DNA from: Candidatus Uhrbacteria bacterium
Lineage (GTDB): Bacteria; Patescibacteriota; Patescibacteriia; UBA9934; GWF2-40-263
Assembly: GCA_016205975.1 (NCBI GenBank)
Contig: JACQSK010000015.1
Span: 10,624-74,623, forward strand
Direction: 5' to 3'
Length of the DNA: 64,000 bases
Positions within the stretch are counted from its first letter, which is position 1, and each line of letters starts with the position of its first letter. The position numbers and the translations under genes were made by a program. A model generated the notes under the pieces. That model did not search any database. It saw only the letters and a program-made list of their open reading frames with translations, and was not told where the DNA came from. Shown here piece after piece: positions 3,225 to 64,000 of the stretch.

Positions 3225-3500
3225 ATGTATCCTATTCCACGCACCTTTTCGACCAGGGACCTCCAGAGACAGTATCGTTCCATTATTGATTCAGCCAAGC
3301 AGACAAAAGAGGCCGTCGTGCTCATCAACAACAGCACACCCGAGGCGGTCTTGCTGGATGTAGAAACGTACAACCAGCTTGTCCAGGACGACTATGCGTG
3401 GGACGAATCTTTTGTTCTCAAACAAGTAGCGCAGGCAAACAAATCATCGCGCGGAGGCAAATCCAAAAAACTGACCTCCTGGGGCGATCTTGACGACTAA
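3225..3500 (+). CDS. Phd/YefM-family type II antitoxin
   Basis: N-terminal pattern RTFSTRDLQRQYRSIIDSAKQTKEAVVLINNSTPEAVLLDVETYNQL matches the Phd/YefM fold. Sits 4 nt upstream of a RelE-like toxin gene. Confidence 0.7.
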   Translation: MYPIPRTFSTRDLQRQYRSIIDSAKQTKEAVVLINNSTPEAVLLDVETYNQLVQDDYAWDESFVLKQVAQANKSSRGGKSKKLTSWGDLDD

Positions 3501-10032: not shown

Positions 10033-11361
10033 ATGAATCTCGTCATGATAGGAACCGGCTATGTGGGGCTTACCACCGGCGTTGGGTTTGCCACGCTTGG
10101 GCACCAGGTGGCCTGCGTGGATATTGATGCGGGGAAAGTCGCGCGGCTGGATCGCGGGGAGGTCCCCTTTTATGAGCCGGGCCTTCAGGAGGCTCTGAAA
10201 CACGTCCAGGAAAAAGGACGCATCTTATTTACGTCTGATTTGAAAAGCGTCATCGGCGGCGCCGAGGTCGTGATGATCGCGGTGGGCACGCCGCCCAAGA
10301 GTTCGGGCGAGGCGGATTTGACCGCGCTATTTGCCGTGGCAGACCAGATCGGGAGCGTGTTGGATCATGAGGCCGTCATCGCGACCAAGAGCACCGTGCC
10401 CGTGGGCACCAACCGGATCGTCCTTGCGCGTGTGCGCGAAGCGATGCGCGCGGCCGGACGCGAGGAGCTTACGAGTCTTATCAACATCGTGTCCATTCCC
10501 GAGTTCCTGCGCGAGGGCTCGGCGTTTGAAGATTTTCTGCAGCCGGACCGCCTGGTGATCGGCTCGGACGATCGCGTCGCGGCACAGATCACCGAGCGCT
10601 TGCATCGTGACATCATCGCGCCCAGGGTGATGACCTCGCTTGAATCTGCGGAGCTCATCAAGTACGCGGCCAACGCGTTTCTCGCCACCAAGATTTCCTT
10701 CATCAATGAAATCGCCAACCTCGCCGACCGCGTGGGCGCGGATGTGCGCCACGTCGCCGAGGGTCTCGGGCATGACCACCGCATCGGTCCGCATTTTTTG
10801 AAAGCGGGCGTGGGATACGGCGGGTCGTGTTTTCCCAAAGACGTTTCCGCGCTCGAGCAAATCTCCGGCGCTCATGGGTATGCCTTCAAGCTGCTCTCCG
10901 CAGTGATCGAAGTGAATAATCGCCAGCGCGAGATGTTTTTTAAGCGCCTGGTGGAAGAGCTTGGTGGCGTGAGAGGGCGGCGCGTGGCCGTATGGGGGTT
11001 GGCCTTCAAAGCGCAGACGGACGATATTCGCGAGTCGGCGGGAATTGAGATCGCCCAGCGGCTGCACGCCACGGGAGCGGAGCTGTGCGTCTATGACCCG
11101 CAAGCGATGAACAACGCGCGCGCGGTCCTGTCGCCGCACGTTGAGTTCGCGCCCACGGCCATGGACGCCGCAGAGGGCGCGGACGCGCTGGTGGTCCTCA
11201 CCGAGTGGCCGGAGTTCCGCGAAGTGTCTTTTTCCACGCTGCACGACCGCATGCTCGAACCCAGGATTTTTGACGGCCGCAACCATCTTGCGGACCTGCA
11301 TCTGGAGAACCAAGGATTTATCTATCGCGGCGTGGGCTTGGGGAGCTATGCGTCTGCATGA
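10033..11361 (+). CDS. ugd: UDP-glucose 6-dehydrogenase
   Basis: N-terminal GTGYVGL Rossmann motif and GGSCFPKD catalytic-Cys motif. Confidence 0.9.
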   Translation: MNLVMIGTGYVGLTTGVGFATLGHQVACVDIDAGKVARLDRGEVPFYEPGLQEALKHVQEKGRILFTSDLKSVIGGAEVVMIAVGTPPKSSGEADLTALFAVADQIGSVLDHEAVIATKSTVPVGTNRIVLARVREAMRAAGREELTSLINIVSIPEFLREGSAFEDFLQPDRLVIGSDDRVAAQITERLHRDIIAPRVMTSLESAELIKYAANAFLATKISFINEIANLADRVGADVRHVAEGLGHDHRIGPHFLKAGVGYGGSCFPKDVSALEQISGAHGYAFKLLSAVIEVNNRQREMFFKRLVEELGGVRGRRVAVWGLAFKAQTDDIRESAGIEIAQRLHATGAELCVYDPQAMNNARAVLSPHVEFAPTAMDAAEGADALVVLTEWPEFREVSFSTLHDRMLEPRIFDGRNHLADLHLENQGFIYRGVGLGSYASA

Positions 11362-48872: not shown

Positions 48873-48902
48873 TTGACATAAACGTGAAAATTGGCGTATA
48901 AT
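48873..48902 (+). promoter_or_regulatory. Strong sigma70-like promoter (TTGACA-18-TATAAT) for the fic gene in an AT-rich patch
   Basis: Perfect consensus hexamers seen directly. Confidence 0.5.
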
Positions 48903-48917
48903 GTGGAAACTAACGAT

Positions 48918-49799
48918 ATGGCACGCATTCCACAGACATTCTCCGTCATCCAGTCGCTTCGCGATCGCTATTACCAAGCCCTCCCCGGTAAGGAGGCTTT
49001 AGTTAAGCTTATTACCGAGGCAGAGATTCCTGAGCAGGTTTATAACTCCAACGCCATTGAGAACAGCACGTTGACCCTTCAGGAGACAGAAAAAATTCTT
49101 CTTCAGATGGATCTTGATCGTTTTGTCAGTGAGCGAGAAATTTTTGAAGCCAAGAATCTTGCGCGTGTCGCGCAGTACATAGAAGCCAAGGCAAAAGAGG
49201 CCGAGATTTCGCTTCCCCTGATGCTCCTGCTTCACAAGATGCTCATTGCCAATATTCGCGATGAGATCGCCGGTCGTTTTAGAAAGGACGATGAGTGGGT
49301 GCGTGTAGGTACGCATTTAGGTGCGGACCCCAAACAGGTCGAGTCATTACTCACCGACATGCTCACGCAATACCACGCAAGCGCGAGCGAACATATTGTA
49401 AAGCGTATTGCACGCCTGCATCTGACCTTCGAGAATATCCATCCATTTTGTGATGGGAATGGACGTATTGGCCGCGTGCTGAATAATTACGCGCTTATCC
49501 GTGAAGGCTATGTCCCGATCAACATCGCGTTCATCAACCGTTCCAGATATTACGACGCGTTCAGAGAGTTTGAGACAACAAACAAGACAGCCATTATGGA
49601 GGAGCTGGTCGGACGAGCACTGACCATGAGTTATCATAAGCGCCTCGCGTACCTGGAAGGCAAACGCATTGTCCCATTGATCCAATACGCGAAGGAGCGC
49701 AAGGAGTCGCACTCGAACCTCATTAACAAAGCCCATCGACAAACCATTTCTGCATTCATGGAAAAAGGAGAATGGAAAATCGCCTATGACCGACTTTGA
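48918..49799 (+). CDS. Fic-family protein (AMPylator type) with intramolecular inhibitory motif
   Basis: Fic motif HPFCDGNGRIGR. Upstream SNAIEN matches the (S/T)xxxE(G/N) inhibitory helix. Start taken at the MARIPQ ATG (48918). Confidence 0.8.
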   Translation: MARIPQTFSVIQSLRDRYYQALPGKEALVKLITEAEIPEQVYNSNAIENSTLTLQETEKILLQMDLDRFVSEREIFEAKNLARVAQYIEAKAKEAEISLPLMLLLHKMLIANIRDEIAGRFRKDDEWVRVGTHLGADPKQVESLLTDMLTQYHASASEHIVKRIARLHLTFENIHPFCDGNGRIGRVLNNYALIREGYVPINIAFINRSRYYDAFREFETTNKTAIMEELVGRALTMSYHKRLAYLEGKRIVPLIQYAKERKESHSNLINKAHRQTISAFMEKGEWKIAYDRL

Positions 49800-50136
49800 A
49801 CAACTCACACAAGCGATCCAGCAGTTTATTGAGGAGCGCGACTGGAAACAGTTTCACAAGCCCAAAGACTGCGCGATCTCGCTCACGCTTGAAGCCGCAG
49901 AAGTGGCCGAGCTCTTCCAATGGAAAACCGACGAGCAGATGGAGGCGATGAAGACCGGCGACAAACAAGAGGAACTCGCCGACGAATTCTCCGACGTCCT
50001 CTTCTGGGTCCTCGCCATGGCGCACGACTTCAACATCGACATCAAATCCGCCTTCCTGCGCAAGCTCGAGAAGTCTGCGGCGAAGTATCCGGTTGAGAAG
50101 GCGAAGGGGAATAATAAGAAGTATACGGAGTACTAG
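49786..50136 (+). CDS. MazG-like nucleotide pyrophosphohydrolase (all-alpha NTP-PPase)
   Basis: EAAEVAE...DEFSDVLFWV MazG-domain signature. Confidence 0.7.
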   Translation: MTDFEQLTQAIQQFIEERDWKQFHKPKDCAISLTLEAAEVAELFQWKTDEQMEAMKTGDKQEELADEFSDVLFWVLAMAHDFNIDIKSAFLRKLEKSAAKYPVEKAKGNNKKYTEY

Positions 50137-50149
50137 GTATTATGTTTTT

Positions 50150-50793
50150 GTACAAGGATTATACTGTTGCAGAGTTCCAGTTACCGGAGCAGAAGGATAT
50201 ATCAACTGGCTCAACGACGTGTTGCACATCAAGCAGACAGCCAACTTTGACGGATGGGATAAGGGAGCATTTGATTTCAAGATTTTCAATGATCCTAACA
50301 AATTACGAGAGGCCATAAAAAAGAAGCATGAGGAAGGGCAGAAGGCGCGCATCCTTGCTGGTTACGCATGGAACCGGACAAGTGCCAAAGATGGAAATGC
50401 AGACGCTCAAGCAACGGACGTCGAGATTGCCGAGTACGATTTTCGGATGCCATGGAATTCGCGACGTGTTGGAACTACCTGGGCCATCGACCCATCAGGT
50501 GTCGATCAGGTCGGTTGCATCCACACCTCACAGGGGCTAGAGTTCGACTACGTCGGCGTCATTGTCGGCCCCGACCTTCGTTCAATCCTGAGACAATGAA
50601 GTACTTCACGAACTGGAGCGAGTACAAAGACGCAAGCGGAAAGAAAGGCCTCAAAGACGATCCAGAAAAGATGAACCAGTTCGTGCGGAACATTTACAAG
50701 GTGCTAATGACGCGGGGAAAGAAAGTGACAGTATCATATTTGACACAGAGTTATTTGACAACCGCAAAAAAATCTTGTACGCTCTTCTTATAA
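50150..50793 (+). pseudogene. 3' remnant of a DUF2075 (Schlafen-like ATPase/helicase) gene; N-terminal ATPase region absent and frameshifted near 50590
   Basis: ARILAGYAWNRTS and GCIHTSQGLEFDYVGVIVGPDL in one frame; the downstream NIYKVLMTRGKK tail in another frame. Confidence 0.6.
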
Positions 50794-52355: not shown

Positions 52356-52667
52356 ATGGAAATCCGTTTCTTTCATACAGAGATCGAACAGTTTATCGCC
52401 ACACTCGAAAAGTCAACGATTGCAAAAGTCTTGCGGACGTTCGATTTGTTGGAGACGTTTGGATACCGACTCGGCATGCCTCATTCTAAAAAGATTGACA
52501 CGAGTCTTTTTGAGTTGCGGATTCGTGGTGTCCAAGAGGTTCGATTTTTGTATACGTTTCGAAAAGGAGAGATCGTGATCGTCTTGCATGGTTTTGTGAA
52601 AAAATCTCAAAAACTTGCACTGAAGGAGAGAAAGCTCGCACAACAGAGGAAAATTTCGTTGACCTAG
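52356..52667 (+). CDS. HigB/Gp49-like (RelE/ParE superfamily) toxin
   Basis: LFELRIRGVQEVRFLYTFRKGEIVIVLHGFVKKSQK signature. Confidence 0.7.
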   Translation: MEIRFFHTEIEQFIATLEKSTIAKVLRTFDLLETFGYRLGMPHSKKIDTSLFELRIRGVQEVRFLYTFRKGEIVIVLHGFVKKSQKLALKERKLAQQRKISLT

Positions 52668-52695
52668 TATAACAGATGTGTTATATTTTTTTTGT

Positions 52696-52968
52696 ATGAA
52701 ATCTTACCGCGTCCTCAGAGAGAGCTTTTTGGCTGATAGGGAAGTACGAAAAGCCTACGACGAACTTGGTCCGGAGTTTGTCATTATTGAGAAACTTATC
52801 CAAAGACGATTGCACAGAGGCGTGACACAAGGACAGCTGGCTGAGATGATCGGAACAAAGCAGGCGGCCATTTCTCGTTTCGAGTCTGGAAAATATAATC
52901 CCACGGTTGGTTTTCTGTATAAGGTTGCCGATGCTCTTGATGTCAAATTGAAAGTGACCATTTCCTAG
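52696..52968 (+). CDS. HTH XRE-family antitoxin (HigA-like)
   Basis: LAEMIGTKQAAISRFESG helix-turn-helix, immediately downstream of the toxin gene. Confidence 0.7.
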   Translation: MKSYRVLRESFLADREVRKAYDELGPEFVIIEKLIQRRLHRGVTQGQLAEMIGTKQAAISRFESGKYNPTVGFLYKVADALDVKLKVTIS

Positions 52969-56152: not shown

Positions 56153-57115
56153 ATGACAACACCCCTCTCATCGAAAAGCACCGCTCGGGACGTCTTTTCG
56201 TATCTGCTCATGATCATCATGCTCTATGTGGGCGTGGTGAGTTTTATTACGCTCCTGTTCCAGTACGTGAACGTGAGTTTTCCCGACGCGCTCGACTCCT
56301 GGATGATGTTCAGTGCCGGCGAGATTATGCGCCGCGCGATCTCGGCCCTCCTCATCGTGTGGCCGGTGTACGTGCTCATGTCTTGGTTTATCGGTAAGGA
56401 CCTACGAGCCGACCAAACCAAGCAAGGGCTCTGGGTGCGCAAGTGGCTGTTGTACCTCACGCTGTTCGTGGCCTCGCTCACCGTCATCATTGATCTTATC
56501 ACGCTCGTGAATACGTTTTTGAGCGGAGAGATTACCACGCGTTTTATCTTGAAGGTCCTGGTCGTGCTGGTGGTGGCCGTCGCCGTGTTTGCCTATTACC
56601 TCTGGGAGCTTCGGCGCGATCCAAGCGTCCGCACAAAACTTCCCCTACACGCCGCGGTGGCCACGTCGGTGGTGATCGCAGGCGCGATCGTGGCGAGCTT
56701 TATCATCGTGGGGAGCCCTGCCAAGCAGCGCGCCGTGCGCATGGACGAGCAGCGCGTCTGGGACTTGCAGTCGATCCAAAACGAGACGCTGAGCTACTGG
56801 ATCCAGAAAGAGGCACTGCCCGCAACGCTGCAAGATTTGAAAGATCCTTTCAGCGGCTATGACGCGCCGACCGATCCTTTGACCGGGGAGCCGTATGTCT
56901 ACACCGTAAAAGGAGACCTTGAGTTTGAAGTCTGCGCCGTATTTGAGACGGAAGTGGCATCGGACGTACAGGGCACGGGAGCCAAGCCCACGATGTATTA
57001 CAGCTATCGCGATTCTTCTTTCGACGTGTGGGCGCACGGCATGGGCATGACCTGTTTCTCACGCACCATCGATCCCGAACTCTACGATGACCAAGGAGGA
57101 GCAATCGTCCCATGA
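56153..57115 (+). CDS. Hypothetical membrane protein (N-terminal 4-5 TM + C-terminal soluble domain)
   Basis: Hydropathy only; no family assigned. Confidence 0.55.
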   Translation: MTTPLSSKSTARDVFSYLLMIIMLYVGVVSFITLLFQYVNVSFPDALDSWMMFSAGEIMRRAISALLIVWPVYVLMSWFIGKDLRADQTKQGLWVRKWLLYLTLFVASLTVIIDLITLVNTFLSGEITTRFILKVLVVLVVAVAVFAYYLWELRRDPSVRTKLPLHAAVATSVVIAGAIVASFIIVGSPAKQRAVRMDEQRVWDLQSIQNETLSYWIQKEALPATLQDLKDPFSGYDAPTDPLTGEPYVYTVKGDLEFEVCAVFETEVASDVQGTGAKPTMYYSYRDSSFDVWAHGMGMTCFSRTIDPELYDDQGGAIVP

Positions 57116-57888
57116 GCACCGTCCTCTCGCAGACCACCGGTATCGTTCTTTCCCACAGAGACCACCGGGAAGCGGACCGGTGGTATTCGGTTTTCACGCC
57201 TGACCGCGGTAAGGTGGAGTTCCTCGCGCGCGGGGGGCACAAGCCGCTGGCGAAGCTCACGCCGCACTTGGAGATGGTCGCGGTGGTTGAGCTCATGCTC
57301 GTGCACGGACGCGCGTATCAGATTGTAGCGGGCGTGGAGCGGCGGCGGGCGTTTGCTCGCATCTACGACGACTTGCAAAAACTGACGCTCGCGCAAAATG
57401 GGTTGCACCTGGTGGATATCGGCACGCGCGAGCAGGAGGCGGATCCGCACCTATTCGAGCTGCTCGTAAGCTGGCTTTCCTTTCTCAACGACCAAGCGTC
57501 CATGACGACCGAGCGTGCCGGGTTCCTGCTGGGCGCATTTGCCCTGAAGCTCATGGCGCTCATCGGGTACCGGCCGGAGCTTGCCCTGTGCCTTTCGTGC
57601 CGCGCGGTAATCGTGGAGGCGCAGTATCGCTGGCACGCGCTTAAGGGCGGCGTCGTGTGTCAGGCGTGTGTTGCGCGAGATCAGGAACAGTGGTTTGCCG
57701 CCAGAGCCATGGGGGACGGCACGCTTAAGCTCCTGCGGTTGGGGCTGGAGGAACCGTTCGTGGTCCACCTGCGGCCTCACCTGCTCGGAGTGGATCTCGC
57801 CGGTTTCCACGAGGCCCTGGAATCGCTGATGATCTCGCACTTTCCGACGATCCCCGCGTCGTCGTTGAGGGCGGCGTGCGCGGTGTGA
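57112..57888 (+). CDS. recO: DNA repair protein RecO
   Basis: OB-fold N-terminus and CLSC...CQAC zinc motif. Confidence 0.85.
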   Translation: MSTVLSQTTGIVLSHRDHREADRWYSVFTPDRGKVEFLARGGHKPLAKLTPHLEMVAVVELMLVHGRAYQIVAGVERRRAFARIYDDLQKLTLAQNGLHLVDIGTREQEADPHLFELLVSWLSFLNDQASMTTERAGFLLGAFALKLMALIGYRPELALCLSCRAVIVEAQYRWHALKGGVVCQACVARDQEQWFAARAMGDGTLKLLRLGLEEPFVVHLRPHLLGVDLAGFHEALESLMISHFPTIPASSLRAACAV

Positions 57889-57969: not shown

Positions 57970-59352
57970 ATGCTGACAACCGTCTCTCATATCCACGAAC
58001 ACCTTGGCGAAACCGTCGAGCTTAAAGGCTGGTGCTACAACTTCCGTTCCAGCGGAAAGATTTTTTTCTTGCAGCTCCGCGACGGCACCGGCCGCGTGCA
58101 AGTGGTGTACTCGAAGGCAGAATTGCCATCAGGCCAATGGGACCTATTGGACGCATTGCGACTTGAGTCTTCTGTGGTAGTCACGGGTGTTGTGAAAACC
58201 GAGCCGCGCGCGCCGTCGGGGTTTGAACTCGCCGGTCTGTCGGTTCAGGTTGTTCATCTCGCCCACGAAGGCTACCCCATCGGCAAAAAAGAACACGGCC
58301 CCGAGTTCCTTCTGGACAACCGTCACCTGTGGCTGCGTGCCGAGAGTCAGTGGGCGGTGCAGCGCGTGCGTGATCGCATCATCACCTCTACGTACGAGTG
58401 GTTTCACGAAAACGGCTTTATCAAGTTCGACACGCCGATTCTGACACCGACGTCGTGCGAGGGGACGACGGAATTGTTTGAGATGGAGTATTTTTCGGAG
58501 GAGGACAAAGGGGGACAAAGGTCGGCAGAGGACGGCAAAGGGCGGTTGGGGAAAGGAGAACCAGGGGAAGATGCCGCATCAGCGGGAGGCAAGGCCTACC
58601 TCGCGCAGTCCGGCCAGCTGTACCTCGAGGCGGGCATCATGAGCCTTGGGCGGGCGTTTGATTTTGGTCCGGTGTTCCGCGCGGAGAAGTCCAAGACGCG
58701 TCGTCATCTCACCGAGTTTTGGATGATGGATGCCGAGGCCGCGTTCGTGGAGCACGAAGGGAATATGGCGATCCAGGAGGCGCTTATCTGCCGAATCGTC
58801 GAGGATGTTCTCAAGCACTGTGCCTATGAGTTGAAGGTACTCGAGCGCGATCTCGAACCGCTCAAAAAAGTCCAGGCGCCGTTCGTACACCTGACCCACG
58901 AGGAGGCGACCAAGAAACTTCGCGAGCTCGGGAGCGACATCGGCGAGCGCGCTGACTTGGGAGCCGACGACGAGACGCTGCTGACACAACACTATGACCG
59001 TCCGATCTTCATCGAGAAGTATCCGGCCGAGGTGAAGGCGTTCTACATGAAGCGTGATCCCGACGACGACACACGCGTGCTCAACAACGACCTCTTGGCG
59101 CCAGAAGGCTACGGTGAAATCATCGGCGGCTCACAGCGTGAGGACGATTATGAAACACTTCTGAAACGCATCCGCGACCACGGTCTTGACCCAGAACCCT
59201 TCGACTGGTACCTCGACCTGCGCCGCTATGGTTCGGTTCCACATTCCGGTTTCGGCTACGGCCTTGAGCGCATCGTCGCCTGGACCTGCGGCTTGCACCA
59301 TGTCCGCGAGACGATTCCGTTTCCGAGATTGGTCAATCGGATCCATCCGTAA
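57970..59352 (+). CDS. asnS: Asparaginyl-tRNA synthetase (with a ~30-aa Gly/Glu/Lys-rich insertion)
   Basis: Class IIb motifs: FRAE, GYGEIIGGSQRE, RYGSVPHSGFGYGLERIV. Confidence 0.9.
   Translation: MLTTVSHIHEHLGETVELKGWCYNFRSSGKIFFLQLRDGTGRVQVVYSKAELPSGQWDLLDALRLESSVVVTGVVKTEPRAPSGFELAGLSVQVVHLAHEGYPIGKKEHGPEFLLDNRHLWLRAESQWAVQRVRDRIITSTYEWFHENGFIKFDTPILTPTSCEGTTELFEMEYFSEEDKGGQRSAEDGKGRLGKGEPGEDAASAGGKAYLAQSGQLYLEAGIMSLGRAFDFGPVFRAEKSKTRRHLTEFWMMDAEAAFVEHEGNMAIQEALICRIVEDVLKHCAYELKVLERDLEPLKKVQAPFVHLTHEEATKKLRELGSDIGERADLGADDETLLTQHYDRPIFIEKYPAEVKAFYMKRDPDDDTRVLNNDLLAPEGYGEIIGGSQREDDYETLLKRIRDHGLDPEPFDWYLDLRRYGSVPHSGFGYGLERIVAWTCGLHHVRETIPFPRLVNRIHP
59298..59345 (+). repeat. attL-like direct repeat = native asnS 3' end
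   Basis: About 83% identical to 60729-60776. Core TCCGCGARACGATTCCGTTTCYGAGATTGGT. Confidence 0.65.
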
Positions 59353-59493
59353 ATAGGCAAAGACACAAAAAGAAAAGGGCTCCTTAGGTAGTTAACCGTT
59401 CGGATCCCTTTTCGTATTGATAAAACAATCTATCACAACAAAGCGTTTTCGTCTTGTTTTTCGAAAGACGTTCTTGTAAGATATCTCTGTGAT

Positions 59494-59661
59494 ATGCCAA
59501 TGAATCATCAAACTTCATCGTACGTTGTTCTCCCCCGTCAGCAGGATTCGCTCCGAGCTCCTTTTGTGAGTTTGCAAACGCTTCGCCGTGCGGTTTCAAA
59601 AGCTTGGAAAGGTGTCTCAGCGACTCAAGAGATTCGTCGACAGCGCAAACGCAGTACATAG
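59494..59661 (+). CDS. Small ORF (55 aa) immediately upstream of the PIN toxin; putative VapB-like antitoxin
   Basis: Positional only: stop TAG lies 5 nt before the vapC ATG. Basic C-terminus. Below the track's ORF length cutoff. Confidence 0.35.
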   Translation: MPMNHQTSSYVVLPRQQDSLRAPFVSLQTLRRAVSKAWKGVSATQEIRRQRKRST

Positions 59662-59666
59662 GTGAT

Positions 59667-60086
59667 ATGCAGTTGGTCATAGATAGTTCAGTTTTTGTTG
59701 CGGCGTTTCGTGAGCAGGAAAAAGATTCAGCTGTCTGTTTCCGTCTTCTGACTCAGTTGGAACAGGGAAAGCTGACAGCCATCATTCCTGTGAGTGTGTT
59801 ATTGGAAGTCGTTGCGGCGATCGCGCGTAGAACGTCTGACGTGGAATTAGCAAGACGGGTGGGCGCACGTCTTGTTTCTTTTTCTTCTTTAAGTTTCATT
59901 GACCTCAGTATTTTTCGAACGCTTCAGTATCTCGATCTTACGGCAGAGTTGAAGCTGGCTGGCATGGATGCCATTGTTGTGGGAACAGCAAAAGAGTTCA
60001 ATCTTCCCCTCGTGACACTCGACAAAGAAATTCAACGCCGAGCCTCAGGTACTGTTACATGCGTTTCCGTTCAAGATTTATTCTAA
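59667..60086 (+). CDS. vapC: PIN-domain ribonuclease toxin (VapC-like)
   Basis: N-terminal MQLVIDSSVFVAAF with conserved Asp, an acidic-residue pattern, and a C-terminal LPLVTLD motif. Confidence 0.75.
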   Translation: MQLVIDSSVFVAAFREQEKDSAVCFRLLTQLEQGKLTAIIPVSVLLEVVAAIARRTSDVELARRVGARLVSFSSLSFIDLSIFRTLQYLDLTAELKLAGMDAIVVGTAKEFNLPLVTLDKEIQRRASGTVTCVSVQDLF

Positions 60087-60124
60087 CTCCTTTAACTTGA
60101 GATGGAATCAAGAGTATCTTTTTT

Positions 60125-60715
60125 ATGAAACCATTCCAAACCCTTCTTTTCCTCATCGTGATCGTTCTCATCGGCGGCGTGGCCGTGCTCTATTGGGGTA
60201 CAACCGTTGAGGATGCGACCGTGCCTGTTGAGGTCGTTGAGGAGCCAAGGATTGAACCCAGAGCAGAGGAGAAAGAAAAAATATATGAAGATACGTTTCT
60301 ATCATTTGAGTACCCTCACAATGTAGAGCTTCTATTTGAAAAGCCTATGGGTGGTCGTTCGGATTCTCAGAGTATTAGTTTTCTCGTGTATGATGAAACT
60401 CAAAAAATCTACATTCCCACACATCTTAGATTAAGCTACATGGTATCGCTGGGCGAAAGCGAAGATTCGTCCTTCGAGACGATCGACGATTTATTGAAAA
60501 ACTACGAAGAGTATTCTTTAGAAACCAAAGAATACGCAGTAGATGGTAAGCGTGCGATTCAAATAGTCACTGGTGACATGTCAGGCGAAACTTTTTTTCT
60601 TGTTGTTCAGGCCGATGAACCTGGAGATGCCTATAGATTTAGTGGCTCATATCTGAATGAAACAGTTGATGAGATTTTGGGATTATTCATGGAAACAGCA
60701 AAGTTGAATCAATAA
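60125..60715 (+). CDS. Hypothetical membrane-anchored protein (196 aa), AT-rich gene
   Basis: N-terminal TM anchor and an acidic body. Low-GC codon usage unlike the core genes. Confidence 0.55.
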   Translation: MKPFQTLLFLIVIVLIGGVAVLYWGTTVEDATVPVEVVEEPRIEPRAEEKEKIYEDTFLSFEYPHNVELLFEKPMGGRSDSQSISFLVYDETQKIYIPTHLRLSYMVSLGESEDSSFETIDDLLKNYEEYSLETKEYAVDGKRAIQIVTGDMSGETFFLVVQADEPGDAYRFSGSYLNETVDEILGLFMETAKLNQ

Positions 60716-60728
60716 ATGAAGTGAAGTT

Positions 60729-60776
60729 TTGTGACTACATCATATCCGCGAAACGATTCCGTTTCTGAGATTGGTA
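60729..60776 (+). repeat. attR-like direct repeat = degenerate second copy of the asnS 3' end (would encode ..RETIPFLRLVNRI..)
   Basis: Aligned base by base to 59298-59345. Confidence 0.65.
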
Positions 60777-60812
60777 AACCGGATCAATTCATTGAAAGGG
60801 AAAAAGTGATCT

Positions 60813-61907
60813 ATGCAAAAAATAAACGTTGGGGTCATATTTGGTGGCAGGTCGGCAGAGCATGAAATTTCCTTGCTGTCGGCCTACAACATCATCGCTG
60901 CGATCCCAAAAAAGAAATATAACATCGTCCCGATCGGTGTGCGCAAGGACGGTTCGTATGTGTATTTTTCAAAAGGCGATTTTATCCTCCATTCTGGTGA
61001 TGCAAAAAAAGTTCGTCTAGCAGCTCGTGGTGTTCCTGTGACATTTGAGTTTGGTGAGGAAGGCCGCATTGTTTCACTGAAAGGAGGCGGTACGAAAAAA
61101 AAACTCGACGTTGTTTTTCCCGTTTTGCACGGAACGTATGGCGAAGATGGAACGATGCAGGGACTTCTGAGTCTCGCCAACATTCCGTTTGTTGGTTCAG
61201 GAGTTTTGGGCTCAGCCGTTGGCATGGATAAGGATGTTGCTAAACGGTTGTGGCGTGACGCAGGTTTGCCGATGGCTGACTTTATTGTTTTTCGAAAATC
61301 TGATCTGAGGAAGATTCAGTTTCGTTCGATTGTGCGCAAACTCGGTCTGCCATTTTTTATAAAGCCTGCCGTCGCAGGCTCGTCTGTCGGCGTTCATAAA
61401 GTGACGAGTGCGAAACAGTTTACAGCGGCTCTGCGCGATTCGTTCTCGTACAGTCACAAAGTATTGATTGAACGAATGATTGTCGGTAAAGAAATCGAGT
61501 GCTCTGTTTTAGGTAACGAGCACCCGATTGTCTCTCTTCCAGGTGCGGTGATTCCCACCCACGGTTTTTATTCTTACGAGGCAAAGTATCTTGATGAGGA
61601 TGGCGCGCATTTTGAAATTCCTGCTCCATTGCCAACGACTGTTGTAAAAAAAATTCATCGAATTGTGTTAGAGGCGTTTCAGGTTCTCGAGCTTGAAGGC
61701 ATGGCGCGTGTTGATGGATTTTTGACGCCTAAAGGTGTGTTCATCCTGAACGAAGTGAATACCATCCCAGGTTTTACCAAGATCAGTATGTATCCAAAAC
61801 TGTGGGAGGTGAGTGGTGTGAGTTATTCTGAGCTTATCGATCGACTTCTTCAGCTCGCAATTGCGCGTCATTACAGGGAACATGCCTTGAAAACCGTCCG
61901 ACAATGA
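60813..61907 (+). CDS. ddl: D-alanine--D-alanine ligase (compositionally atypical, ~47% GC)
   Basis: ATP-grasp ligase with the Ddl N-terminus (VGVIFGGRSAEHEISLLSA) and C-terminal motifs. Confidence 0.88.
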   Translation: MQKINVGVIFGGRSAEHEISLLSAYNIIAAIPKKKYNIVPIGVRKDGSYVYFSKGDFILHSGDAKKVRLAARGVPVTFEFGEEGRIVSLKGGGTKKKLDVVFPVLHGTYGEDGTMQGLLSLANIPFVGSGVLGSAVGMDKDVAKRLWRDAGLPMADFIVFRKSDLRKIQFRSIVRKLGLPFFIKPAVAGSSVGVHKVTSAKQFTAALRDSFSYSHKVLIERMIVGKEIECSVLGNEHPIVSLPGAVIPTHGFYSYEAKYLDEDGAHFEIPAPLPTTVVKKIHRIVLEAFQVLELEGMARVDGFLTPKGVFILNEVNTIPGFTKISMYPKLWEVSGVSYSELIDRLLQLAIARHYREHALKTVRQ

Positions 61908-63346
61908 TTTCCAGGTATGATAGACTAATGCTCACTATGACAAGAACATGGATCGATGAAACGACACAAAAAGTAGGCGAGACGGTGGTGCTCAAGGGCT
62001 GGGTGCATCGGCTGCGAAAAATGGGCGATAAGCTCGTATTTATTGACTTGCGCGATGGATCGGGCTTGGCGCAGGTGGTGTTTTATAAGCCAGATTTGGA
62101 CGAGGCAACGTGTACGGCTGTGGATGAATTAAAGCCCGAGTTCGTCATCGAGGTTGAAGGCGTTGTGAATGATCGAGGAGCCAAGCAGGTGAATCCTGAG
62201 ATGCTCACGGGGACGATTGAGATTGGCGCCAAGACGGTCAACATTTTGAATGCGGCGCTCACACCGCCGTTTCCGATCGATCAAGATTCCGCGAACGTCG
62301 CCGAGCACGTGCGCATGAAGTATCGGTACTTGGATTTACGCACGGAGCGCCTCCAGCATCATCTGCGCTTGCGCAGCCGGTGGGTGCAGGCGTGCCGAGA
62401 GTATTTGTTCCAGAATCGTTTCGTTGAAATCGAAACGCCGCTGCTCACCAAAGCCACGCCGGAAGGCTCGCGCGACTTTGTCGTGCCTTCGCGTCTGCAG
62501 CCGGGAAAATTTTTTGCGCTCCCGCAGAGCCCGCAGCAGTACAAGCAGCTCCTCATGTGCTCGGCCTTCGAGCGGTACTTCCAGACCGCGCGCGCCTTGC
62601 GCGATGAAGACCCGCGCGCCGACCGCGGGTTCGAGCACACGCAAGTGGACCTTGAGATGAGTTTTGTCGAGCGCGAGGACGTCATGCAGATGGTTGAGGG
62701 CATGGTGATCTCGGCTGCGGAGAAACTCGGTTTCACGATTCGCGAGAAGCCATTCCCGCGCATCAGCTACAAGGACGCGATGGCGAAGTACGGCGCGGAC
62801 AAGTTTGATATGCGTACGGATGAAGAGAAGGCGGCGGGAGTGTTGGCGTACGCTTGGGTAGTTGACTTTCCATTTTTTGAGCGCGATACGAAGAGCGGCC
62901 GATGGACGTTCACACACAACCCCTTCTCCAATCCTCTGCCGGAGTTCCGCGACGACCTCTTGGCCGGCCGCAACATCGAGAACATCTTGACCTCGCAGTA
63001 CGACCTGGTGTGCAACGGCTATGAGTCAGGCGGCGGCAGTATTCGCGCGCACGAGGCGGAAGTGCTGGAGGCGACGTATCGGGTTATGGGTTACAGCAAG
63101 GATGAGCTTACGGCGTCTGTCGGACACATGCTGGAGGCGTTCCGCTACGGTGCGCCACCGCATGGCGGGATCGCTCTGGGCGTGGAGCGCAACCTCATGA
63201 ACCTCACGGGCGAGTCCGCGCTGCGCGAAGTGGTCGCGTTCCCGATGACGGCCTCAGGCACGACATCGGTGATGGAGGCGCCAACGTCCCTGGACGTCGA
63301 AACGTTGCTGGAACTCTCGATTAAAACCACAGAGAAAAAAAGCTGA
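61904..63346 (+). CDS. aspS: Aspartyl-tRNA synthetase, bacterial-type but lacking the GAD insertion domain (480 aa)
   Basis: QSPQQYKQLLM motif 1, FRDED motif 2, GGGSIR, PPHGGIALGVERNLM motif 3. Alternative start at 61934. Confidence 0.9.
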   Translation: MISRYDRLMLTMTRTWIDETTQKVGETVVLKGWVHRLRKMGDKLVFIDLRDGSGLAQVVFYKPDLDEATCTAVDELKPEFVIEVEGVVNDRGAKQVNPEMLTGTIEIGAKTVNILNAALTPPFPIDQDSANVAEHVRMKYRYLDLRTERLQHHLRLRSRWVQACREYLFQNRFVEIETPLLTKATPEGSRDFVVPSRLQPGKFFALPQSPQQYKQLLMCSAFERYFQTARALRDEDPRADRGFEHTQVDLEMSFVEREDVMQMVEGMVISAAEKLGFTIREKPFPRISYKDAMAKYGADKFDMRTDEEKAAGVLAYAWVVDFPFFERDTKSGRWTFTHNPFSNPLPEFRDDLLAGRNIENILTSQYDLVCNGYESGGGSIRAHEAEVLEATYRVMGYSKDELTASVGHMLEAFRYGAPPHGGIALGVERNLMNLTGESALREVVAFPMTASGTTSVMEAPTSLDVETLLELSIKTTEKKS

Positions 63347-63351
63347 CGCGT

Positions 63352-64000
63352 ATGTCTTTTGAGGTGAGGCTTGAGACGTTCGATGGGCCGCTGCACGTGC
63401 TGTTGGAATTGATCCAAACGTCCAAGCTCCCCATCACCGAAGTCTCGCTTTCGAAAGTTACGGACGACTACTTGCGTTACATCGACGCGCATGATGTGCC
63501 CGCTTCCGAGCTTGCGGACTTTCTCGTGATCGCCACGCGTCTCTTGCTCATCAAGTCTCAAGCGATTCTTCCCGGCCCCCTGGACGACGAACAGGAAGAC
63601 GCCACCACGCTCGCGCTCCAGCTGCGTCTGTACCAAGAGTTCGTGGAGGCGTCCAAACATTTGGAGACGCTGTTCGATCGCGCGCAGCGATCGTTTGAAC
63701 GAGCGCGCTGTGACGTGGTGAAACCCTCTCACATGGAGATTCCCCCAGGCGTGCATGCGGCCGCCTTGCGCGAGGCGTTCGCCGGACTTCTGCGCAGACT
63801 CGAACCGTTTTTCCGTTTGCAGGAAGCGGCGATCGAGCGCGTGGTCTCCGTGCAGGAGCGTCTGCGGGAGATCCATGAGGCCATTTTGAGCAAAGCGAAA
63901 CTGACCTTTGCGCACTTCGCCGGCCACGGCCGTTCGCGCGTGGATGTGGTGGTCAGTTTTCTGGCGCTGTTGGAACTCGTGAAACAGCGAGTCGTGCGCG
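63352..64000 (+). CDS. scpA: Segregation and condensation protein A; 3' end beyond the window
   Basis: N-terminal FDGPLHVLLELIQTSKLPI ScpA signature. Open frame to the window end, so not in the ORF track. Confidence 0.75.
   Translation, partial: MSFEVRLETFDGPLHVLLELIQTSKLPITEVSLSKVTDDYLRYIDAHDVPASELADFLVIATRLLLIKSQAILPGPLDDEQEDATTLALQLRLYQEFVEASKHLETLFDRAQRSFERARCDVVKPSHMEIPPGVHAAALREAFAGLLRRLEPFFRLQEAAIERVVSVQERLREIHEAILSKAKLTFAHFAGHGRSRVDVVVSFLALLELVKQRVVR

Follow-up and report, generated by a model that had tools for sequence, protein, structure and literature searches.

Why should the last codons of an aminoacyl-tRNA synthetase gene recur, out of place, 1.4 kb downstream of the gene to which they belong? 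The question is raised by the interval between asnS (asparagine--tRNA ligase) and aspS (aspartate--tRNA ligase) in a 64,000-nucleotide (nt) stretch of DNA, here called the window, which is part of a 113.5-kb contig from a metagenome-assembled genome (MAG) of Candidatus Uhrbacteria, a member of the Candidate Phyla Radiation (CPR/Patescibacteria; NCBI proteins MBI4437908 for asnS and MBI4437909 for the PIN-domain gene discussed below). All genes of the locus lie on the forward strand, in the order recO (57112-57888), asnS, orf55, PIN, p196, ddl and aspS, and the overall layout can be written asnS-hairpin-[orf55-PIN]-p196-a'::c'-ddl-aspS, in which a' is the displaced copy of the asnS end and c' the end of another gene to which it is joined. 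A first-pass annotation had taken the repeat for the attL/attR signature of site-specific integration. It is, on balance, probable that a'::c' is instead an old recombination scar in a gene-shuffling hotspot, left by duplicative insertion through general recombination without an integrase, and that no integrase-driven island was involved.

The repeated asnS end and its fusion to a second relic

A repeat search paired 59296-59361 with 60738-60803 (66 nt, 80% identity, spacing 1442), and within this pair the asnS-derived coding part, 17 codons long, is identical at 44 of 51 positions between the functional copy, A3', and the relic a' (coordinates in the table). When the last 93 nt of asnS were aligned locally with the downstream 4.6 kb the score was 67; 300 dinucleotide shuffles scored 20.4 +/- 2.0, with a maximum of 28, and the asnS-tail alignment at about 78 other asnS loci scored at most 38, the sole exception being a locus of a distant relative, L058, which is taken up below. 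For a degenerate 31-nt core, chance predicts 0 occurrences in the window, and exactly two are present. These shuffles, cross-locus controls and core counts exclude a low-complexity origin, which the first-pass annotation had also doubted. Its claim of a repeated gene end is thus upheld, as is the in-frame translation of the second copy (LHHIRETIPFLRLVNRIN...), but the coordinates it gave for that copy, 60729-60776, lie about 11 nt too far left, the true register being 60738/60740-60787.

Contigs in Logan, assembled independently from six samples (five SRR12113xxx runs, and L169 from SRR4343428), match the window at 100% within 58659-64000, and three of these contigs cross both repeat copies. 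Together with the shuffle and cross-locus controls, this leaves chance or low-complexity similarity, or an assembly artifact, with almost no probability as the source of the repeat. In samples SRR4343428 and SRR4343430, Logan contigs (L085, L086, L169) have their first base precisely at the left edge of a' (60738), and one stops at 60760, while five other samples read straight through this edge. Such contig starts suggest that a second allele co-occurs whose sequence differs left of the relic, perhaps that of an unoccupied site.

The remnant reading frame, LHHIRETIPFLRLVNRINSLKGKK followed by a stop codon, is a fusion of two gene ends, that of asnS, running up to 60788, and that of a gene for a CxxCxxCC-domain protein, at 60790-60809. 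The a' frame has no start codon and is closed upstream by an in-frame TGA (60732-60734). In the c' relic a purine-rich AAAGGGA, presumably the ribosome-binding site, lies 10 nt ahead of the ddl ATG and is kept together with a 3-nt spacer, as in the sister genome L175; the alignment of c' to L175 continues into ddl, and the CxxCxxCC-ddl adjacency is also present in L178/L179. Two of the trio formed by the window, L175 and L178, namely L175 and L178, have in common the order asnS-H-CxxCxxCC-ddl-aspS, where H stands for a membrane-anchored protein. Because c' has been kept and L175 and L178 share this order, the ancestor of the window must have had it too, with H and almost all of CxxCxxCC since lost by deletion. 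Deletion must also have shaped the scar, because the distal repeat is fused to the relic of another gene. That the a'::c' joint is in frame is compatible with a' once having ended a working gene, although such a joint has a one-in-three chance of being in frame.

Both copies of the repeat are of the window's own type. The relic a' matches the asnS end of the window at 44 of 51 positions, those of L175 and L178 at 37-38 of 51, and that of the best other locus at 41; six derived sites are common to a' and A3' and absent from L175 and L178, and the duplication therefore arose within the window lineage. Of the seven sites at which the copies differ, two (positions 39 and 49) have the ancestral base in a' and a changed base in the functional gene; a' itself has changed at three to four sites, mostly from GC to AT and including a proline-to-leucine change in an invariant PFPR motif, as neutral decay predicts. 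This pattern of changes in both copies indicates that the duplication is old and that a' has decayed neutrally. The first-pass annotation had named an ancient, fixed repeat pair as evidence against its own proposal, and the facts go part of the way there, the functional asnS having gained two substitutions since the duplication at sites where a' is ancestral.

A sliding comparison found asnS to be L175-like over its whole length, the 3' end included, with no donor switch, so that no distant donor has replaced the gene end. A search for an asnS whose 3' end matches a', with a 61-amino-acid (aa) C-terminal query, gave short fragments and no informative match, and the 90% cluster of asnS has a single member. 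A single foreign donor of lower GC content bringing a' and ddl together, which the mostly synonymous, AT-shifted state of a' might suggest, was rejected because a' shares six lineage-specific states with the resident asnS, to which it is closest, and because L175 has ddl in the same place, preceded by the c' sequence and 86% identical.

Might a' and c' be maintained for a function, perhaps as a leader, an attenuator or a small open reading frame (ORF) controlling ddl? The exact retention of the purine-rich stretch and 3-nt spacer in c', and a 10-nt inverted repeat that brackets a', would suit such a role. Set against these are the a' frame itself, with its upstream stop and no start codon, the decay-like changes just described, and the absence of a' upstream of ddl in L175, L176, L177 and L178. 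In addition, the RNA fold of a' is no better than that of shuffled sequences (z = 0.55) and a' has no Rfam match; a structured RNA or riboswitch there was rejected on these grounds. Maintenance for function is accordingly very improbable, and we infer a relic without present function beyond the adjoining ddl ribosome-binding site carried by c'.

Table. Features of the asnS-aspS locus in the window, followed by the contents of the interval in related loci (GC3, GC content at third codon positions)
Feature	Coordinates or loci	Strand	Remarks
asnS, intact	57970..59352	+	asparagine--tRNA ligase, 460 aa; Pfam tRNA-synt_2 and OB fold; core-type composition, GC3 0.71
A3'	59296..59346	+	proximal repeat copy; functional last 17 codons of asnS before HP and stop
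Hairpin term49	59366..59419 (core 59373-59421)	+	inverted repeat, 18-nt arms, 18-nt loop, T-run after
orf55-PIN cassette	59453..60087	+	with ~40 nt conserved upstream; orf55 59494-59661 (putative antitoxin), PIN 59667-60086 (VapC-like)
p196	60125..60715	+	N-terminal membrane anchor and ~145-aa extracytoplasmic domain; 80% aa identity to L170-173 homolog, same locus
a'	60738..60788	+	distal repeat copy; non-coding relic of asnS 3' end (HHIRETIPFLRLVNRIN)
c'	60790..60809	+	relic; last 20 nt (..LKGKK and stop) of CxxCxxCC-domain gene; identical to L175 8978-8997
ddl	60813..61907	+	D-alanine--D-alanine ligase, 364 aa; within low-GC block; NCBIfam equivalog NF002525, 460.6 bits vs cut-off 457
aspS	61937..63346	+	aspartate--tRNA ligase; Pfam; start set by homology (ORF opens 61904); core-type composition
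Empty interval, asnS abutting aspS	L004, L012, L023, L061
ddl only	L177
ddl-H414	L176
H421-NYN-CxxCxxCC-ddl	L178/L179
H412-CxxCxxCC-ddl-orf55-PIN	L175		sister genome
orf-PIN-hairpin-p196	L170-173		followed by a non-orthologous 436-aa AspRS-like gene

A mosaic interval between conserved genes

The synteny recO-asnS...aspS-scpA-scpB is conserved across Uhrbacteria, and the asnS-aspS interval, hypervariable over five related Uhrbacteria lineages, was found with at least seven different contents; conserved flanking core genes with differing content among related genomes are the mark of a hotspot. The first-pass annotation had proposed to look for an unoccupied site at asnS in relatives, and empty or differently filled sites are indeed present: asnS abuts aspS in some relatives and ddl in others (L176, L177), in each case without a second asnS end. 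The informative relatives were obtained through a protein database and contig look-ups, and gene tables with precomputed Pfam assignments (±8 kb) existed for four related lineages, L170, L175, L176 and L178/L179. A scan of metagenomes of the Joint Genome Institute (JGI) with ddl gave best matches at most 60% identical and without asnS context, L092 (ddl-patatin-aspS) excepted.

The window, L175 and L178 are about equidistant in their core genes (asnS 88/88/88.5%, aspS 91/90/90%). At the amino acid level the asnS product is 87-88% identical to those of L175 and L178 and the aspS product 91% identical to that of L175, and the sequence TGATAGACTAATGCTCACT upstream of aspS is kept in both L175 and L178. 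The ddl product of the window, by its equivalog match a bona fide D-Ala-D-Ala ligase, is 86% identical to that of L175, 77% to L177, 70% to L176 and 66% to L178, all at the same locus. With ddl alleles at 66-86% identity in genomes that share 88-91% in the flanking asnS and aspS, cassette exchange may extend even to housekeeping functions. The L178 ddl is itself incongruent with the core, being only 66% identical although its asnS and aspS are at 88-90%. Measured against L175, identical codons make up a fraction of 0.60-0.61 in core genes, 0.68 in ddl, 0.79 in PIN and 0.85 in orf55; against L170 they make up 0.66 in p196 and 0.46-0.50 in core genes. From the different positions, orders and divergence rates of the cassettes it follows that the interval evolves by cassette gain, loss, reordering and allele replacement.

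The orf55-PIN pair illustrates this most clearly. The segment 59453-60087 is 90.4% identical by blastn to L175 10128-10762 (93% at the amino acid level), but in L175 the copy stands between ddl and aspS, and at synonymous positions it is less diverged than the core (identical-codon fraction 0.79-0.85 versus 0.60). The L175 cassette, within the region 10080-10800, is flanked by a 12-nt direct repeat, TTGTGATAGACT, which contains the ddl stop codon, and the uninterrupted site, ...TGATAGACTAATGCTCACTATG(aspS), is found in L178 (9080-9100) and in the window (61905-61936). The repeat looks like the target duplication of a toxin-antitoxin (TA) mini-cassette of about 700 bp without a mobility gene. 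A circular permutation of the cassette was also considered, since the motif ACTTGA..TGGA, spotted by eye, stands right of PIN in the window but left of the cassette in L175; so short a match is near chance by a rough estimate and is not relied on.

The PIN gene that the first-pass annotation reported is real and has a conserved upstream partner, and the rest of its cargo list, a 55-aa ORF and a 196-aa N-terminally anchored protein, is likewise present. The 139-aa PIN protein matches Pfam PF01850 (E = 3.4e-14, 53.9 bits versus a cut-off of 23.6) and has the acidic quartet D6, E48, D102 and D120 at typical spacing, by inspection of the sequence only; against the NCBIfam VapC equivalog it reaches 20 bits where the cut-off is 80, and so falls outside that equivalog. 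Three lineages share the partner, orf55, which stops 5 nt short of PIN; it is conserved at 91% with L175 and 52% with L170 and has an invariant C-terminal motif, SLQxLRxAVSxAWKG..EIR. It has no Pfam, NCBIfam or PDB match and belongs to no known antitoxin family. It is a plausible, putative antitoxin and may represent an undescribed short antitoxin family, and the pair is today probably an ordinary type II toxin-antitoxin system. The NCBI annotation omits orf55, the asnS and PIN accessions being consecutive.

The hairpin and p196 point in another direction. The 49-nt hairpin, likely the asnS terminator, is identical at 48 of 49 positions (98%) to L170 4682-4730, where it lies between PIN and p196, and it was found only in the window organism and L170-173, being absent from all other fetched loci and from viral contigs. 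These lineages have core genes that are about 72% identical at the nucleotide level, and the side of the TA cassette on which the hairpin stands differs between the two. Both hairpin and p196 are absent from L175 and L178; the order is PIN-hairpin-p196 in L170-173 and hairpin-orf55-PIN-p196 in the window. They must have been imported, because neither of the nearest relatives has them, whereas a more distant lineage does, with a similarity above that of its core genes.

No Pfam or NCBIfam match was obtained for p196. Its AlphaFold2 (AF2) model has a pLDDT of about 90 in the extracytoplasmic domain, and the Foldseek matches are to PsbP/CyanoP (E about 1e-3, TM about 0.4), weak matches that hint at a PsbP/Mog1-like fold. 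Compared with the 412-421-aa proteins at the same post-asnS position in L175 (7398-7590) and L178, p196 (60125-60190) has only the first 60 or so residues in common, at 45% identity; these comprise a signal anchor and linker, and the remainders are unrelated. This suggests exchange of extracytoplasmic domains behind a common N-terminus. Both p196 and ddl follow the TA pair without a terminator-like site between.

Composition was part of the original case for an island, which was described as a 1.4-kb low-GC islet bounded by the repeats. The tract does not end there: a block of uniform low GC extends for about 2.55 kb, from the asnS stop to the aspS start (59353-61936), with the distal repeat inside it and, beyond, the housekeeping gene ddl, which is essential to the cell wall. 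GC3 is 0.41 for orf55, 0.42 for PIN, 0.41 for p196 and 0.44 for ddl, against 0.71 for asnS, 0.73 for aspS and 0.80 for recO, and in every relative examined the interval has a lower GC3 than the flanking core genes (in L175, ddl 0.47, PIN 0.39 and core about 0.60; in L170, PIN 0.35, p196 0.49 and core about 0.59). Low GC is therefore no proof of recent import, because ddl beyond the distal repeat is equally low and the same interval is low in all relatives. Other low-GC3 patches of the window (3225-3500; 48891-50599; 52356-52968) also hold toxin-antitoxin or defense-type genes, namely a Phd/YefM antitoxin, a Fic/DOC gene beside a MazG-like gene and a truncated Schlafen-type helicase fragment, and a Gp49 (HigB-like) and HTH_3 pair. 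Low GC thus marks the accessory gene pool generally and neither dates nor delimits the insertion.

Some further features of the flanking genes may be recorded here. Within asnS, 58490-58600 is a lineage-variable, low-complexity, charged and Gly-rich insertion (EEDKGGQRSAEDGKGRLGKGEPGEDAASAGG), where nucleotide identity to all relatives falls to 0.60-0.76. A foreign 5' end of aspS was considered and rejected, as GC3 over its first 90 codons (0.60) falls only a little and without a clear breakpoint. In L170-L173 the gene that follows p196 (L170 5481-6791) encodes a 436-aa class II synthetase that is 27% identical to the aspS product of the window, a non-orthologous replacement at the same locus.

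How the scar may have formed

If the scar were the work of a site-specific element, such as an island or satellite that entered the asnS 3' end with an attP carrying a replacement gene end and later lost its integrase, several features would be accounted for: direct repeats of a gene 3' end flanking 1.4 kb of accessory genes, a cargo with GC below that of the core, and relatives in which asnS abuts aspS. As the first-pass annotation had noted, however, no integrase remains; a scan of every ORF in the asnS-aspS interval turned up PIN, ddl or nothing, and the gene tables of L081, L170, L175, L176 and L178 show no integrase, recombinase or transposase Pfam within ±8 kb. The longest exact run shared by the copies is 13 nt. 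Decay of an old element could also erase an identical crossover core, which makes this point weak alone, but both copies also carry lineage-specific asnS states. Moreover, the segment between the repeats is not one unit. The TA cassette is L175-like and in L175 was inserted alone elsewhere, with its 12-nt duplication, p196 and the hairpin are L170-like and differently ordered there, the divergence rates differ, and the low-GC tract runs on past the distal repeat. Neither the attL/attR signature nor the single decayed or satellite element can readily be sustained on these data. In viral contigs no relatives of PIN, p196 or the hairpin were found, and a phage or satellite origin was rejected accordingly. 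An integron-like array was rejected as well, there being no intI and no attC sites: an inverted-repeat scan of 59300-62000, made with no dedicated attC model, shows only the terminator-like hairpin after asnS and short, weak pairs. We regard the integrative element as unlikely. What does survive of the proposal is its core observation, an insertion at the asnS 3' end that duplicated the gene end.

Insertion by general recombination fits best, because the cargo derives from the shared pool of the clade, the repeats are of native type, there is one sharp joint at 60737/60738, and neither a recombinase (within ±8 kb in the four lineages with gene tables) nor viral relatives or attC-like sites were found. 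On this reading the asnS-aspS interval of this Uhrbacteria clade, bracketed by two conserved genes for aminoacyl-tRNA synthetases, is a hotspot where small co-directional cassettes come, go and change order, from a pool that comprises the VapBC-like orf55-PIN pair, the membrane-anchored proteins p196, H412, H414 and H421, the CxxCxxCC protein, an NYN RNase and even ddl. A close relative with the arrangement asnS-hairpin-(TA)-p196 already in place would have been the source of the hairpin-(TA)-p196 block and of the new asnS 3' end that came with it. The block could have entered by a Campbell-type single crossover of a circularized fragment within about 57 nt of asnS-end homology, or by homology-facilitated illegitimate recombination (HFIR) anchored in asnS, with the illegitimate joint at 60737/60738. 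In either case the old gene end would be displaced downstream as a', and a deletion, before or after the insertion, would have fused a' in frame to c' (or had already created an asnS::c' fusion).

Several points weigh against this account. The mechanism is read from end-products, and neither a circular intermediate nor a donor strain nor an allele with an empty site was recovered; an insertion and a deletion, in either order, are the minimum that the account requires; 57 nt of homology is short for a RecA-dependent crossover; and the GC3 of ddl, well below that of the flanking core, finds no explanation in it.

A parallel case bears on the topology. In the distant relative L058 (9236-10850, 30% GC), the order downstream of asnS is 1 kb of cargo with ORFs of 195 and 115 aa, a chimeric joint, a 0.4-kb spacer and aspS. 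In the joint, 48 nt from the start of aspS meet 45 nt from the end of asnS at a GAAAC microhomology, and these pieces are 89-92% identical to the real gene ends. L058 may be read as an independent analog, with the topology expected from single-crossover insertion of a circularized asnS3'..aspS5' fragment. Taken by itself, this topology fits circle insertion or tandem duplication; the spacers on the two sides are unrelated, on which ground a tandem duplication in L058 was rejected. Its junction is not replicated in the window, where no aspS-5' fragment lies beside a', a further point against general recombination as outlined above.

Could the window have been rearranged purely in situ and without imported sequence, through deletions after a tandem duplication that began 57 nt ahead of the asnS stop? 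Such an event would leave both repeat copies of the lineage's own type, as they are, and would give the Campbell topology, the aspS5'::asnS3' joint of L058 being the novel joint expected of a tandem duplication. Yet p196 and the hairpin were imported, to judge from their 98% hairpin identity and a p196 synonymous identity of 0.66 versus 0.46-0.50 for the core, the two L058 spacers are unrelated, and more steps are needed. A purely internal origin therefore appears improbable, if perhaps a shade less so than an integrative element.

Hotspot biology and its relation to known systems

If general recombination did shape the locus, the scar is a non-functional relic and the case is one of ordinary recombination-hotspot biology in an under-studied phylum. 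It also carries a caution, namely that in a reduced CPR genome the combination of direct repeat, low GC and toxin gene, equated with an integrated island, can mislead; general recombination, acting in a minute hotspot flanked by two tRNA-synthetase genes, would have left just this signature. Episymbiotic CPR bacteria have few classical mobile elements, and for the study of their gene exchange the dated scars, with target duplications of 12, 51 and 93 nt, offer concrete junctions to seek in read data.

It is tempting to speculate further, although we think it unlikely, that the asnS/aspS junction in Uhrbacteria, and perhaps in other CPR bacteria, is a dedicated integrase-free cassette-exchange site at which small promoter-bearing cassettes circulate between strains and insert duplicatively. 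The cassettes may include the orf55-PIN unit of about 640 bp, membrane proteins and even ddl alleles, with small circular intermediates as a possible route, and the target duplications may vary in length, from 12 nt in L175 to about 51 nt in the window and 45+48 nt in L058. Were this so, the cassette system would be mechanistically distinct from integrons and transposons.

How, then, does the locus compare with established systems? HFIR, described for naturally transformable bacteria and for conjugation in E. coli (PMC3240628), combines one homologous with one illegitimate joint, as proposed here, and Campbell insertion yields direct repeats equal to the shared homology; in both, as in the window, foreign DNA comes to lie beside a homologous anchor without a dedicated recombinase. 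The window differs in that the mechanism is deduced from end-products only, the homology is only about 57 nt, and an extra deletion is required for a'::c'.

Islands and prophages at gene 3' ends share with the window an intact gene end on the proximal side, a displaced partial end on the distal side and accessory cargo between. They differ from it in that the asnS-aspS locus has no integrase and no exact core, its mosaic cargo is found separately elsewhere, and its distal copy is fused to the relic of another gene. Integron cassette arrays, and clusters of attC sites lacking integron integrases (CALINs), resemble it in their co-directional small cassettes of variable order, a TA pair among them; unlike these, the locus has no intI and no attC-like imperfect palindromes at cassette borders, its sole strong hairpin being terminator-like. 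The TA pair itself resembles type II VapBC systems in its PIN protein with four acidic residues, in the small conserved ORF 5 nt upstream and in moving as a unit of about 640 bp, and departs from them in a putative 55-aa antitoxin outside the known antitoxin and DNA-binding families and in a PIN protein that scores far below the VapC equivalog cut-off.

Chromosomal hotspots of horizontal gene transfer flanked by conserved core genes are a known concept in bacterial pangenomes. As in these, asnS and aspS bracket an interval that differs in almost every relative, is rich in TA and small accessory genes, and has a lower GC content. The asnS-aspS interval is distinct in being very small (0-4 kb), in lying within a reduced CPR genome without a mobility gene, in holding the housekeeping gene ddl, and in its visible scars of gene-end duplication.

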